Shown here in pieces: positions 13,486-22,305 of a stretch of 64,000 nt of DNA (position 1 is its first letter; each line of letters begins with the position of its first letter). Source of the stretch: Candidatus Ratteibacteria bacterium (GTDB lineage Bacteria > Ratteibacteria > UBA8468 > B48-G9 > JAFGKM01). The position numbers and the translations under genes were made by a program. The notes under the pieces were generated by a model, which was not told the DNA's origin, made no database searches, and saw only the letters and a list, made by a program, of their open reading frames with translations. The DNA is taken from the NCBI GenBank assembly GCA_046296715.1, contig JBKBIN010000002.1, positions 14,011 to 78,010 on the forward strand, given 5' to 3'.

Positions 13486-13525
13486 TTTAATTATAATTTT
13501 ACCACTTATTTATATTTATAAGCAA

Positions 13526-14680
13526 TTAAATCTTTTTCTTTTCTGGAATTGGTGGGAAATATATAAAAAGATGGCTTATTCTATCATTTTCTCCAAGGTA
13601 TATTTCTCCAAAATCTCCTGTGCAGGCAGAAGCAAACTCATAACCATGCCATGGAATTTCAATAGTTGTATAAAGAAGTCCTAAATCTGTTAGTGAGTAT
13701 GTATCTATATTATATGAAAATAAATGTGCCATACCATCTTTCTCACCACTTATCCCATAGACAGTTCCGTCATTCCCTACAGTTAAACATGGTATATCTT
13801 TTTCAGGAGTAATTTTACCAATCATTCTTACAAAATTTATTTCAGGGTTAAATGAAAAAAATATACCATCTATACTTGTCCCACCATATATAAATCCATC
13901 ATATTTGTTAAAACAGACAGATGATACACGGTCATAAAAAGATCTTCCTTTTAAAAATGGAACATAAATGTCAAGAGGAATAATTCTATCTTCAATAATT
14001 GAATATTTAAGAATTTGACCAAAAGGTCCAAAGAAATAGATATTACTTTTGTTATCTTTTACCATTACAGGTGAAAATAATCTGTTTTTGTCAATTTTTT
14101 CTTTAATTGAAACCTCGTTTTTTGTAATATCATAGATGAAGAAATTGCCTTCATTTGTCAATCCATAAAGTAAATCTCTTTCTTCATCAGATATTAAATA
14201 AACTATAAATTCTCCAAAAACTGGTTCCAAAACTATTTTTATCTCTCCACAAGTAGTCATACCTTCATACATATAATCTTTTGATGTATCATAAAAAAAT
14301 ATATATCCTTTTTCTCCATCGCTAACTCCTCCCCATATATTTCCATTCCTATCAACACATAACGAATTTTTTACTGCCCTTGCCCCTTCAATTATTCCAA
14401 TATCACATACACCATCTCCTTCAGGAGAAAAACTATAGTAAAAAAGATGGCTTCTATTTCCACTTGTTGCTCCATAAATTTTTCTTTTTTTGCCTTTACA
14501 AAGAGAAGTTATTGCACATTCCCCAGGAGGGATTGGCTCTGAAAGTGATTGGAAAAGACGCAAACTTCTATTTTCTACTCTTCCATAAGTTACATATGGG
14601 TTATATCTTTTAAAATTCATATGAATTTCTGGTCTTTCTGGCCACTTCCTTTTTTCAAGTTCTTTTTCAAAATCTTTCAT
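13526..14680 (-). CDS. Beta-propeller repeat protein (NHL/Vgb/SGL-like), paralog B of a tandem pair
   Basis: Repeats DRNGNIWGG, GNDGTVYGISG, KSNIYFFGPFGQIL and TGDFGEIYLGE. The likely start is ATG at 14678-14680, with SD GGGGG 5 nt upstream and 2 nt after the stop of the upstream paralog. The track's 14710 start overlaps that paralog by 28 nt. Confidence 0.4.
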   Translation of the reverse strand: MKDFEKELEKRKWPERPEIHMNFKRYNPYVTYGRVENRSLRLFQSLSEPIPPGECAITSLCKGKKRKIYGATSGNRSHLFYYSFSPEGDGVCDIGIIEGARAVKNSLCVDRNGNIWGGVSDGEKGYIFFYDTSKDYMYEGMTTCGEIKIVLEPVFGEFIVYLISDEERDLLYGLTNEGNFFIYDITKNEVSIKEKIDKNRLFSPVMVKDNKSNIYFFGPFGQILKYSIIEDRIIPLDIYVPFLKGRSFYDRVSSVCFNKYDGFIYGGTSIDGIFFSFNPEINFVRMIGKITPEKDIPCLTVGNDGTVYGISGEKDGMAHLFSYNIDTYSLTDLGLLYTTIEIPWHGYEFASACTGDFGEIYLGENDRISHLFIYFPPIPEKKKI

Positions 14681-14682
14681 TT

Positions 14683-15897
14683 TTACCCCCATTGTTTTAC
14701 ATCTTTCCATGAAAAAAGTTTTTTGTTTTTATCAACATATTCAGGTCTATAGATATACATTCCTGTTGGAGAATTACCTGCTTCTGCAAAATATAAATTC
14801 CCATAAAAATCAAAAGTTGCACTTGCAATTGCTCGTGGTCTGTGCTCGCCAAAAGTTAAAGAACAAACAACCTCTCTTTCTCCTGTTTCTGGGTCCATCC
14901 TTAAAAGGTGGGTATCATATGGTTCTTCCCATCCGCGTCTCATTGTAAAATAAAGTTTTTTATCACTACCAAAAACAAGCCCTCTTACCTGCCATCCTTC
15001 AAGATGTCTATCTGTTTTAAAATCAGGTGGACCCCATGCTCTTTGTAAATCTTCCATAACTGGTTTTTCTCTATAAGGATTAAATCTCCATATATGCGAT
15101 TCATAACCCCAATCAGTCCCATAAAACCATTCCCAATCAAGAGATGGAACTACATCATAAGTAACATTGTGCCAGCCATATCTATAATTTTCAAAAGGAC
15201 ATCTTACATTCATTTTTTTTATTTCATTTGTTTCTGCATCAATTTTTAAAATAAAACCATAATCATCTGTTGTATATGCATTTCCATATTTATCAAGAAA
15301 AATTGCTTGTGGATTAATATCTCCAATTCTTCCAAGATCAATATATTTATGTGAATCAAGATAGTAAACATAGACATGATTTCTTGGCCAAGTTATACCA
15401 TACAACTTCTTTCTTTTTTCATCATAAGCAAGACATCTACTTCCTTCTCTTTTTGGTCCTATTCCAAAATTATTTATTTTATTTTTAACAGGATCATAAG
15501 TGAAAATAAAAGCACCTGGAAATCTAACATTTTCATCATCCCACGTATTCCACGGTCTCCAATAAGGATGATTTATTGGTGGTCCACTTGCATGGGTTGC
15601 ACAATACAATAAACCATCACTTCCAGGAATTAAACAATAATGAATTTTTGATTGTGTTGCATGTCCATTATCAGGGGGCTCTCCAAGTTCAGGTCCAACT
15701 TCTATCAAGTATTCAAGTTTTTCTTTGTCAGGTAGATATCTCAAAATAAAAACACTTAAACCACCTGTACATTCTCCACAGGCAGCAATATAAATATTTC
15801 CATCAAATCCTGTACAAAGTCCCCATGTTGAATCATGTTTTGGTAATTTATCAAAAACTAAATATTCTATTTCTCCGCCAAGTACTTCTTTTTTCAT
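14683..15897 (-). CDS. Beta-propeller repeat protein (NHL/Vgb/SGL-like), paralog A of a tandem pair
   Basis: Repeats GFDGNIYIAACGECTGG, GSDGLLYCATHASG, DKYGNAYTTDDYG and DFYGNLYFAEAGN. SD AAGGGAG lies before the ATG. Alignable with the downstream paralog. Confidence 0.4.
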   Translation of the reverse strand: MKKEVLGGEIEYLVFDKLPKHDSTWGLCTGFDGNIYIAACGECTGGLSVFILRYLPDKEKLEYLIEVGPELGEPPDNGHATQSKIHYCLIPGSDGLLYCATHASGPPINHPYWRPWNTWDDENVRFPGAFIFTYDPVKNKINNFGIGPKREGSRCLAYDEKRKKLYGITWPRNHVYVYYLDSHKYIDLGRIGDINPQAIFLDKYGNAYTTDDYGFILKIDAETNEIKKMNVRCPFENYRYGWHNVTYDVVPSLDWEWFYGTDWGYESHIWRFNPYREKPVMEDLQRAWGPPDFKTDRHLEGWQVRGLVFGSDKKLYFTMRRGWEEPYDTHLLRMDPETGEREVVCSLTFGEHRPRAIASATFDFYGNLYFAEAGNSPTGMYIYRPEYVDKNKKLFSWKDVKQWG

Positions 15898-16060
15898 CTT
15901 TTTCTCCCTTTTAAATTACAAAAGTATATCAACTTATAAAATTTCTGGCAAATCTTTTTATTTTAAAATTTGAAGTAAAATTTATTTTTTTTGCGAATTT
16001 AAAACAGAATTATTTCCCAAAATAAATTTCTCAATTTTTCCTCAAGTATTATAAAGTTTC

Positions 16061-20595: not shown

Positions 20596-22305
20596 ATGAA
20601 ACCAAGAGAAGAATTCCCGAGACCTGATTTTAAAAGAAATGAATGGATAAATTTAAATGGGTTGTGGGATTTTGAAATAGATACATCAAATTCAGGATTA
20701 GAAAGAAAATTTTATTTATCGGAGAAAAAATTTAAAGAAAAAATACTTGTTCCATTTCCTCCTGAAAGTAAACTGTCAGGAATTGGAAATAAAGATTTTA
20801 TGGTTTCTGTATGGTACAAAAGAAAAATTGAAATACCTGAAAAATGGAAAGATAAAAGAATATTTTTAAATTTTGGTGCAGTTGATTTTTTAACAAATGT
20901 CTGGATAAATGGAGAAAAACTTGGGACCCATATTGGTGGTTATACTCCATTTACATTTGAAATAACTGATTTTTTAAAAAGAGAAAATGAAATTGTAGTA
21001 AATGCCTATGATGACAATAGAACTTACTTACAACCATGCGGAAAACAGTCAGATAAATATAATTCATATGGATGCCGTTATACAAGAGTAACTGGAATTT
21101 GGCAAACAGTTTATCTCTATGCAACAGGTAAAAATTACATAAAAAATTTTAAACTTTATCCAAATTATGATACAGGGCAAGTTCTGTTTTTAATAAATAT
21201 AGAAGGAGAAGGGAAATTAGAAGTTGAAATATTTAAAGAAACTGAAAAAATAGATAAAAAGACTGGTTATGGAAGTGGAACTGTTTTTATTTCAACAAAA
21301 ATTAAAAACTTTATTCCTTGGGATATAGAAAATCCATTCCTTTATAATTTTAAGATCTCTCTATTCTCAAAAAATCAAAAAGAAGATGAAGTTGAATCAT
21401 ATTTTGGTTTTAGGAAATTGGAAATTAAAGGGAAAAAAATTTTATTAAATGGAAAAGTTTTATTTATGAGAATGGTTCTTGACCAGGGGTATTATCCTGA
21501 TGGAATTTATACTGCACCAGACAAACAAGATATAAAAAATGATATAAAGATAGCAAAAGATATGGGATTTAATGGAGCAAGATTACATCAAAAGGTCTTT
21601 GAACCATTATTTTTATACTGGGCTGATAAACTTGGTTATCTTGTCTGGAGTGAATATCCAAACTGGGGAATTAAAAATGGAATAAGTGATAAAAGTTTTG
21701 GAGTTTTAAGTAAAGAATGGATAGATGTTATAGAAAGAGATTTCAATCATCCTTCAATAATTGGCTGGTGTCCTTTAAATGAAACTTCTCCAAGTCAGAA
21801 TAATGAACTTGTAAGAGCCCTTTATTTAATTACAAAAAATTTAGATAAAACAAGACCAGTGATAGATACAAGTGGATATGTTCATGTTGAGACAGATATT
21901 TATGATTGCCATAATTATAAACAGGACCCTCAACAATTTAAAAAAGATTTTGAATTATTTGAGAAAGAAGATAAAATTTGGCAAAATTTCCCTCAATATG
22001 ATGCTCCATACAAAGGACAGCCATACTGGATAAGTGAATATGGTGGAATATGGTGGGATATAGAAGGAAGAGAAAATGGATGGGGATATGGAGAAAGACC
22101 AAAAACAGAAAAAGAATTTATTGAAAGATATAAAAATTTAACAGAAATCCTTTTAAATCATCCGAAAATATGTGGTTTTTGTTATACGCAACTTTATGAT
22201 ATAGAACAGGAAGTCAATGGTCTTTACACATATTTAAGAAAACCAAAATTTAAACCAGAAATAATAAGAAAAATAAATTCAAAAAAAGCAAAAATTGAAA
22301 AATGA
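20596..22305 (+). CDS. Glycoside hydrolase family 2 protein (beta-galactosidase/beta-mannosidase-like)
   Basis: [15 protein letters not shown], and the GH2 sugar-binding domain pattern [37 protein letters not shown]-barrel region [13 protein letters not shown]. Confidence 0.65.

Follow-up and report, generated by a model that had tools for sequence, protein, structure and literature searches.

Two neighbouring genes on the minus strand of a 64,000-nucleotide stretch of Candidatus Ratteibacteria DNA (the window) encode seven-bladed beta-propellers, A and B, which profile comparison shows to be ancient, distant paralogues, and which are always co-encoded, mostly as A then B, and fused into one chain in other lineages. 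We put the chances at roughly even that A and B are two subunits of one cytoplasmic double-propeller, an uncharacterised heteromeric unit that would probably be a sugar-processing enzyme. Judging from the distribution of conserved residues, A is probably catalytic and B accessory. What is new here, at the level of sequence comparison, is the apparently obligate A-B pairing, the natural fusions, a conserved cluster confined to A and the sugar-related operon mates.

Table 1. Features of the A-B gene pair (window coordinates)
Feature	Position	Strand	Description
Gene A	14683..15897	-	404 aa, seven-bladed beta-propeller; more conserved, putatively catalytic subunit; codons 14686-15897, stop 14683-14685 (ORF listing)
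Gene B	13526..14680	-	384 aa, seven-bladed beta-propeller; distant paralogue of A, putatively non-catalytic partner; codons 13529-14680, stop 13526-13528 (ORF listing)
Coupling junction TGG GGG TAA AA ATG	14678..14691	-	Read from sequence; GGGGG 14690-14686, A stop 14685-14683, 2-nt spacer, B ATG 14680-14678
Promoter-like TTGCCA-17-TATACT (with TG)	15923..15951	-	About 25 nt upstream of A; consensus scan; weak
K84-H102 codons of A (SKIHYCLIPGSDGLLYCATH)	15592..15648	-	Core K-x-H ... T-H motif, A blade 2, superfamily-wide
E42; H174; H21 of A	15772-15774; 15376-15378; 15835-15837	-	Complete the A cluster with K84-H102
A C-terminal tail [KR]-x-W-G-COOH (KQWG)	14686..14697	-	WG end in 110/112 full-length A homologues
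B N-terminal arm, residues 1-50	14531..14680	-	Motif L-x-x-R-x-W-P-x-[RK]-P ... SEPIPPGE

An earlier, sequence-only reading of this DNA had described two proteins of about 390-400 aa, the second starting 2 nt past the stop of the first behind a GGGGG run, and both the open reading frames and the junction sequence bear this out (Table 1). The dN/dS values of A and B (0.05-0.15) indicate that both are real genes. The Shine-Dalgarno-like run, 5 nt ahead of the B start codon, is made up of the final two codons of A (Trp-Gly), and most related loci share this ...TGGGGN-stop layout, with the B start codon no more than about 10 nt from the A stop or overlapping it. The ATG of B is the conserved start, as homologues at two other loci (L005 and L006) open with M[KR]D[FL]EKELEKRKWPE; a longer B frame from 14710 is without support. 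We also considered whether the Trp-Gly end of A is merely a ribosome-binding site for B, and rejected this as the sole cause since the WG end is kept where A and B are separated by spacers of 50-105 nt. The number of promoter-like sites found in the region by consensus scan was not above the shuffled expectation, and Rfam and tRNA scans of the window returned nothing relevant.

Structure prediction with AF2 gave high-confidence beta-propellers for both proteins (pLDDT 95 for A and 91 for B), as anticipated from the sequence alone. Each model is a ring of seven antiparallel blades, with four strands per blade, arranged about a central axis and closed by an N-terminal strand, and this places both in the seven-bladed class. 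Seven xDGxIY-type blade motifs were found in each protein, in agreement with the models and with the six or seven counted earlier. The similarity of A to B is weak for single sequences (BLASTP E 0.001); the profile match is clear and runs the full length (hhalign 99.7%, E 1e-26, 317 columns, 21% identity). Of two examples offered previously for a blade-for-blade alignment, that from blade 7 is right, but the other was shifted by one blade: blade 1 of A (GFDGNIYIAACGE) pairs with blade 1 of B (GKKRKIYGATSGN) and not with DRNGNIWGG. Neither protein has a hydrophobic N-terminus or a transmembrane segment (maximum 19-aa Kyte-Doolittle score 1.35), consistent with the earlier statement that both lack a signal peptide, and the absence of such segments suggests that the A/B unit is probably cytoplasmic.

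Searches against Pfam, NCBIfam and PADLOC returned nothing above threshold for A, for B, for 97 aligned homologues (47 A and 50 B) or for fused or distant relatives; the PADLOC anti-phage defence models had no match at all. Searches of PDB sequences with single sequences, profiles, one fusion and one distant relative gave no meaningful match, the B profile finding only designer 'Cake' propellers and, weakly, BT4663 (4a2l, E 9e-5). The Pfam WD40 profile matched neither A nor B, so that the likeness to WD40 proteins is structural only, and a full-text literature search found no paper on such a propeller pair. The description of the family as unassigned therefore stands, in that no characterised family in Pfam, NCBIfam, PADLOC or the PDB sequences claims A or B. 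We define the split family by two adjacent propellers: the first, of A type, bears K-x-H...T-H and ends in [KR]xWG, and the second, of B type, comes directly after it and has the N-terminal arm ...RxWPx[RK]P...SEPIPPGECAITSL. The window pair carries every one of these features. At the 50% identity level, a search with the A profile collected 929 cluster representatives. The window pair shares 96% (A) and 90% (B) identity with its counterpart in an Omnitrophota MAG.

Examination of related genomes, which the sequence-only reading had proposed as a check on constant adjacency, showed that B adjoins A in 46/46 testable loci (45 in the order A then B, one in the order B then A). The pair is spread over more than 12 phyla, mostly uncultured and archaea included, among them Omnitrophota, Armatimonadota, Planctomycetota, Verrucomicrobiota, Lentisphaerota, Firestonebacteria, Ratteibacteria, WOR-3, Actinomycetota, Bacillota, Bathyarchaeota and Thermoproteota. 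Across pairs the identities of A and of B are correlated (r = 0.83), and A is better conserved than B in 92% of comparisons. Moreover, natural fusions account for at least 20 divergent cluster representatives, 745-845 aa long, in which an A-like N-terminal half is joined to a B-like C-terminal half; two fusions have the order B-A. The linkers of 20-70 aa are not homologous to one another, the WG tail is missing, and fusions recur on several independent contigs, and we therefore rejected the possibility of read-through artefacts. The occurrence of fusions with unrelated linkers indicates that both propellers work as one unit. Together with the constant adjacency, they strengthen, by genomic inference, the earlier idea of a heterodimer, and A and B may form a stable 1:1 heteromer.

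The ends of the two proteins offer a possible means of association. In split B homologues, W13, V30, G33, R38, L40 and P49-P51 of the N-terminal arm are 87-99% conserved, and W13 and P49 are lost in fusions. Residues 1-30 of B are modelled with lower confidence (pLDDT 67-76). The arm is a candidate docking element for A, and the [KR]xWG tail of A together with the 50-residue arm of B may stand in for the covalent linker of the fused forms.

We then compared residue conservation in 92 A-like propellers from three architectures (single, fused and distant). K84 and H86 were present in 100%, H102 in 77-100% and T101 in 84-100%, with E42 (55-100%) and H174 (70-82%) less strictly kept. In the hhalign alignment, B carries A102, K104, V119, S120, N75 and N179 at the positions of K84, H86, T101, H102, E42 and H174, and the residues that are widely conserved in B are mostly Gly or aromatic. 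This asymmetry, with a His/Lys cluster that is superfamily-wide in A only, had gone unseen in the first reading. From DSSP and canonical propeller topology, we infer that the A cluster occupies one (top) face, on the D-A and B-C loops that belong to blades 1-3, and such a loop face is the usual site of propeller active sites. A would then be the catalytic subunit, its putative site formed by K84, H86, T101 and H102 together with the less strictly kept E42, H174, H21 and R172. The cluster resembles a site built on His residues that would act on an anionic or polar substrate, probably with the aid of a divalent metal. E42 is its only broadly conserved acidic residue, which is atypical of a classical two-carboxylate glycosidase. 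B, having lost or never had the cluster, would probably serve as a wall, lid or substrate-binding partner.

The genomic neighbourhood of the pair in other genomes points to sugars. The commonest neighbour is a GntR regulator with a sugar-binding domain (16 loci), and other recurrent neighbours are MFS and ABC sugar transporters, PfkB, MIPS-like, Zn-ADH and GFO/IDH/MocA proteins, an NAD-epimerase, a xylose-isomerase-like TIM protein, HAD, a CBM9-containing protein and GH2. Among 112 operon mates tallied, MFS (6), MIPS-like (4) and Zn-ADH (4) came top; no third gene was constant across the loci, so the context is a theme and not a pathway. Distant relatives of 670-700 aa lie directly behind sugar ABC transporters and beside genes for GH43, GH38, fucose isomerase and FGGY kinase, and in one relative (P0321) an A-like propeller is joined to a SASA carbohydrate esterase. 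On the basis of these operon mates and the esterase fusion, the unit would most likely be a hydrolase or lyase whose substrate is a sugar, oligosaccharide or sugar derivative taken up by the cell, and belong to a CAZyme-like family. A similar theme is known from the PL22 oligogalacturonate lyase (Ogl), a cytoplasmic seven-bladed propeller of about 390 aa with a His-rich Mn2+ site. Ogl acts on oligosaccharides from dedicated importers, and the reactions that follow rely on a PfkB-family kinase and dehydrogenases. The PL22 profile was absent from the Pfam results for the 97 members at E <= 0.1.

In the window, cstA flanks the pair upstream and dnaX-ybaB-recR downstream, as first noted. Close relatives from Omnitrophota likewise have the pair between cstA and dnaX, with no obvious sugar operon in either case; rpiB and a GH2 gene are found within 6 kb of it in the window. 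That the pair is a housekeeping factor for DNA replication or recombination, probably co-transcribed with dnaX-ybaB-recR (B and dnaX share a strand that shows no terminator-like site, only 40 nt separate the B stop from the dnaX start, and L005 has the same gene order), is very hard to credit, because the dnaX linkage recurs only in this near-identical relative and loosely at L033, all other loci have different and mostly sugar-related neighbours, and a family that is patchy, missing from most bacteria and multi-copy in some genomes is unlike a replication factor.

Foldseek matches were generic, comprising Vgb lyase, YncE and Lp49 followed by WD40 proteins, with many non-enzymatic WD40 scaffolds among them. 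YncE (3VGZ) and Lp49 (3BWS) are YVTN-type bacterial seven-bladed propellers that are secreted or periplasmic, have no partner propeller and, from the negative NCBIfam and Pfam searches, bear no sequence-level relation to A or B. The sequence-only reading had drawn analogies to Vgb, NHL and SGL propellers. Vgb was indeed among the fold matches, by a small margin over generic WD40, but NHL and SGL were unmatched. Vgb (virginiamycin B or streptogramin B lyase, PDB 2Z2N) is 8-14% identical to the pair and gave no profile-level or significant sequence match; this level of identity and the slim margin indicate a fold resemblance and not family membership.

It is unlikely, in our view, that each propeller acts largely on its own as a Vgb/SGL-type lyase or lactonase for small molecules, inactivating cyclic ester or depsipeptide antibiotics or hydrolysing sugar lactones, for example. 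A few members do show sub-threshold SGL, Lactonase or strictosidine-synthase-like matches, one distant relative was named 'gluconolactonase' by JGI, and sugar dehydrogenases, which could produce lactones, are common nearby. However, neither protein belongs at sequence level to the Vgb, SGL/SMP-30 (PF08450) or NHL (PF01436) families, no profile exceeding threshold (sub-threshold SGL in 4/50 B and 0/47 A members, NHL in 1/47), and SGL and NHL are six-bladed families, unlike A and B. Vgb is a single propeller of 293 aa, whereas the second propeller is obligatory here, paired or fused. The subunit closest to Vgb in structure is B, which lacks the conserved polar cluster, and the context is one of sugar catabolism and not of antibiotic resistance, with no resistance genes.

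A non-enzymatic double-propeller module for ligand binding or scaffolding, such as a cytoplasmic sugar sensor or adaptor, appears quite improbable. It would be comparable to the two-propeller periplasmic sensor of the Bacteroides hybrid two-component systems, and the heparin-sensing double propeller of BT4663 was both the top Foldseek match of B and the weak PDB match of its profile mentioned above. Sub-threshold Reg_prop (PF07494) matches, each to a single repeat and at best with E 1.4e-4, were recorded for 18 of 47 A and 12 of 50 B members, the GntR regulator with its sugar-binding domain is the most frequent neighbour, and scaffolds are the majority of fold neighbours. Nevertheless, none of the architectures examined carries an output domain, be it signalling, DNA-binding or transmembrane, and catalysis is what an invariant cluster such as K-x-H/T-H/E/H typically indicates. 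The operon slot right behind transporters is the place of catabolic enzymes, a carbohydrate esterase is joined to one relative, and polysaccharide degraders carry several paralogous pairs per genome. The architecture itself has precedents: in the BT4663 HTCS sensor domain (4A2L) and in GH74 xyloglucanases, two seven-bladed propellers form one unit with the ligand between them. These proteins, however, are single-chain and extracytoplasmic and have Reg_prop or BNR repeats, whereas A and B fall below the threshold of both, appear cytoplasmic and are usually encoded by two genes.

Returning to an enzymatic double-propeller, we tentatively suggest that the pair may represent, in split form, a large and unrecognised superfamily of double-beta-propeller carbohydrate-active enzymes. 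These would use a His/Lys/Glu site on the first propeller, probably with help from a metal, while the second propeller, an inactive paralogue, would provide a wall for substrate binding. Such enzymes, active in the cytoplasm of bacterial and archaeal anaerobes from gut and sediment, would amount to a new family of glycoside hydrolases or polysaccharide lyases. The beta-propeller fold is common, yet this family has no above-threshold Pfam or NCBIfam entry and no relative among PDB sequences, and it occurs in sugar-utilisation loci of gut and sediment anaerobes, a frequent source of new carbohydrate-active enzymes. Its split, fused and order-swapped forms provide a natural experiment in which a two-domain enzyme would have been divided into an active subunit and an inactive paralogue. 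Discovery of an activity would allow hundreds of 'hypothetical' genes to be annotated, possibly as a new CAZy family; otherwise the pair stays an ordinary conserved hypothetical pair.

With regard to composition, both proteins had been described as Cys- and Trp-rich. This holds for Trp in A (3.7% versus a background of 1.1%) but not in B (0.8%), and Cys is barely raised (2.0% and 2.1% in the two proteins versus 1.5%). A is also enriched in His (3.0% versus 1.2%).

The sequence-only reading had described the neighbouring minus-strand genes A and B as an uncharacterised pair of beta-propeller proteins, and this observation and its interpretation were upheld and extended here. The junction sequence agreed with a B start 2 nt past the A stop, behind a GGGGG run that arises from the final codons of A (Trp403-Gly404). 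A B start at 14710, given by the longest ORF, was rejected because in the closely related loci L005 and L006 the conserved stretch M[KR]D[FL]EKELEKRKWPE begins at the ATG that lies at 14680 in the window. Comparison with L005 and L006 showed both genes to be under purifying selection, with dN/dS values of 0.045-0.13 (A) and 0.11-0.15 (B). Both sequences lack TM-like segments, and neither N-terminus is hydrophobic, consistent with the reported lack of a signal peptide. The description of both proteins as Cys- and Trp-rich was only partly borne out, since A is rich in Trp (3.7%), as well as in His (3.0%), but B is not Trp-rich (0.8%), and Cys is only slightly raised in each.

Coordinates of genes A and B and of associated features (window positions unless a locus is named)
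Feature	Position	Strand	Size or remark
Gene A, coding	14686-15897	minus	404 aa
Gene A, stop TAA	14683-14685	minus	
Gene B, coding	13529-14680	minus	384 aa
Gene B, stop	13526-13528	minus	
A/B junction		minus	...CAA TGG GGG TAA AA ATG AAA... (sequence read)
GGGGG run	14690-14686	minus	
B stop to dnaX start	13486-13525	minus	40 nt
GH2-family glycosidase gene	20596-22305	plus	~4.7 kb from pair, as in L005
GH2-family glycosidase gene	L005:3266-4975		
GH2 gene, archaeal (Thermoproteota) locus	L023:12416-14368		directly adjoins B
Second A copy	L004:10542-10907		begins right after B
c3 family gene	L046:8986-11229		~748 aa
c2 URO-D-like gene	L001:10396-11535		directly downstream of B

AlphaFold2 models built on alignments of 47 (A) and 50 (B) homologues were all-beta, with a mean pLDDT of 94.9 and pTM of 0.94 for A, and 91.3 and 0.88 for B. 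DSSP assigned seven four-stranded blades to each, blade 7 being completed by the N-terminal strand, so that the propeller fold proposed earlier was confirmed in the predicted structures. Direct comparison of A with B shows hardly any similarity (BLASTP E 0.001), but their family profiles align blade for blade over 317 columns (probability 99.7%, E 1e-26), which substantiates the proposed paralogy; one of the two blade alignments originally offered as examples was correct, and the other was shifted by one blade. Fold comparison with B returned Vgb (32.6), YncE (30.7) and Lp49 (30.1), then WD40 proteins (~29-30), while Foldseek returned BT4663 and G-beta. From the models and these generic structural matches, we consider the predicted fold certain, with no function singled out by its neighbours. 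A small-molecule lyase or lactonase resembling Vgb or SGL is one alternative, for which resemblance of fold is the sole argument.

Searches of Pfam, NCBIfam and PADLOC, and PDB sequence and profile searches, gave no threshold-passing match for A or B, and family and PDB searches likewise gave none for their fused and distant relatives. Pfam found nothing above threshold on 97 aligned homologues, among which sub-threshold repeat matches to Reg_prop, DUF5074, Kelch, Tachylectin and SGL were scattered. Members are labelled 'hypothetical protein' in their sources or carry automatic labels such as 'BamB' or 'gluconolactonase', and we found no literature on the family. The beta-propeller is a very common fold, of which A/B represents a previously undescribed variant at family level.

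A scan of a genome collection with the A profile yielded 52 loci, from Omnitrophota, Armatimonadota, Brocadiaceae, Phycisphaerae, Verrucomicrobiia, Victivallales/Lentisphaeria, Firestonebacteria and Ratteibacteria, from further MAGs (WOR-3, TA06, Actinomycetota, Bacillota), and from archaea (Bathyarchaeota, Thermoproteota/Nitrososphaerota). Wherever the flank sufficed, a B homologue was the immediate same-strand neighbour of A (46/46 loci), in the order A to B at 45 loci and B to A at one (L027); the adjacency check suggested by the earlier reading was thus positive throughout. At most loci A ends in TGG GGN stop, and the B start codon overlaps the stop or lies within ~10 nt of it. Divergences of A and B are correlated (r = 0.83, 40 pairs), A being more conserved in 92% of comparisons. 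In several genomes the pair is present two or three times (loci L032/L038/L053, L019/L040/L055, L025/L051/L052 and L026/L031). At L004, a contig ends in an A-B-A arrangement, and at L051 and L053 A is split into two ORFs, possibly by frameshift, pseudogenisation or assembly error.

An exhaustive A-profile search of 1.84 billion cluster representatives retrieved 929 proteins at E <= 1e-3 (116 at E <= 1e-30). The best 150 of these include at least 20 fusion proteins, 745-845 aa long, in which a full A-like propeller precedes a full B-like one; two fusions have the reverse order. Their linkers (20-70 aa) are mutually unrelated and lack the WG motif, and the fusions occur on independent contigs from different sources, which led us to reject a read-through artefact. 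As classical Rosetta-stone evidence, the fusions strongly suggest that A and B work as a single physical unit. The earlier idea that the two may act together is strengthened by these natural fusions and by the invariant adjacency, and the case for one two-propeller unit is strong. Two elements characterise only the split form, in which A and B are separate genes: an A tail, [KR]-x-W-G-COOH, present in 110/112 full-length homologues and kept even where the intergenic spacer is long, and a strongly conserved N-terminal arm of ~50 residues in B, modelled in the monomer with lower confidence. Tail and arm may be docking elements that stand in for the covalent linker.

An A-profile alignment of 44 single-domain, 20 fused and 28 distant (640-740 aa) A-like propellers revealed a conserved cluster. 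K84, H86 and G128 are 100% conserved in all three groups, followed by T101 (84-100%), H102 (77-100%), E42 (55-100%), H174 (70-82%), H21 (30-75%) and R172 (39-71%). In the A model, H21 and H86 immediately precede an inner strand, and E42, T101-H102 and R172-H174 lie just past the second strand of blades 1-3; by canonical propeller topology, these residues would share the 'top' face. Propeller enzymes carry their active sites on this face. The profile alignment places A102, K104, V119, S120, N75 and N179 of B at the cluster positions, and broadly conserved residues of B are mostly Gly or aromatic. This difference suggests that catalysis probably resides in A, and that B is a degenerate paralogue retained for structure or substrate binding, a catalytic asymmetry that is moderately supported.

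Clustering of neighbour genes within +/-8 kb of the pairs revealed no third gene constant across loci. Recurrent neighbours were a GntR-HTH regulator with a sugar-binding domain (16 loci), a DUF1559 prepilin-like protein (13), a URO-D-like protein (c2, 10), an unknown 748-aa protein (c3, 10), a CBM9-containing 990-aa protein (7), an MFS transporter (7), a PfkB kinase, a myo-inositol-1-phosphate-synthase-like protein and an NAD epimerase (6 each), Zn-ADH and GFO/IDH/MocA (5 each), together with Metallophos, HAD, xylose-isomerase-like TIM barrels and creatininase-family proteins. MFS, MIPS-like, Zn-ADH, AP_endonuc_2, sugar ABC components, PfkB, epimerase, HAD and Metallophos led the Pfam families among 112 same-strand operon mates, and in an Actinobacteria MAG a sugar ABC transporter lies directly upstream. 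Thematically, these neighbourhoods centre on the uptake and conversion of carbohydrates. A role as a non-catalytic module for ligand binding or scaffolding would fit the regulator neighbours and the generic fold neighbours, but the proteins have no output domain and the invariant cluster looks catalytic.

Relatives of the pair also occur in carbohydrate contexts. The 658-aa relative P0321 joins an N-terminal SASA/CE-type sialic-acid-specific acetylesterase domain (PF03629, E 2.7e-69) to an A-like propeller, and links the family to carbohydrate-active enzymes in a single chain. Genes of a distant family of 670-700 aa (343 matches, many in gut Oscillospiraceae MAGs) directly follow those for AraC-type two-component systems and for sugar ABC transporters, and adjoin genes for GH43, GH38, fucose isomerase and FGGY kinase. 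In our best-supported model, A and B would form a cytoplasmic heteromeric double propeller, in which A bears a His/Lys/Glu site, probably metal-assisted, and B supplies the second wall of the substrate cleft; the context suggests a carbohydrate role, and the unit would be a hydrolase or lyase for a sugar derivative taken up by the cell. What makes the family notable is its size, its spread over uncultured phyla and archaea, and the obligate pairing or fusion of its two propellers; it holds no mechanistic surprise yet, and as a well-defined 'conserved hypothetical' may plausibly lead to a new carbohydrate-active enzyme family.

Some neighbours and relatives have features of their own. The c3 family, with no Pfam or PDB sequence match, adjoins the pair in Victivallales/Lentisphaeria and Omnitrophota, often in tandem, and is another candidate glycan-processing protein. 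The c2 genes are of the uroporphyrinogen decarboxylase/MtaA type, sometimes in 2-4 copies per locus (loci including L001, L021, L022, L027, L028 and L045). In the distant relative P0336 (692 aa), residues 608-668 weakly match alphavirus nsP3 macrodomains (E ~0.002-0.007), possibly by chance, and the C-terminal 300 aa of its family are only partly B-like.

The minus-strand gene order in the window, rpiB, pabB, class-IV aminotransferase, cstA, A, B, dnaX, ybaB, recR, lipid-A acyltransferase, mazG, agrees with the earlier placement of the pair between cstA and dnaX-ybaB-recR, and the window is collinear with L005, on a Candidatus Omnitrophota MAG contig, at ~89% nucleotide identity. A replication-linked housekeeping role would draw on this local synteny only, and cstA and dnaX were immediate neighbours of the pair solely in the window and close relatives. 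Neither tRNA genes nor Rfam families at the gathering threshold were found across the whole 64-kb window. The short spacer between B and dnaX has no terminator-like site, and in this organism A, B and dnaX-ybaB-recR probably share one transcript. Within 6 kb of the pair, the window carries rpiB and one GH2 gene.
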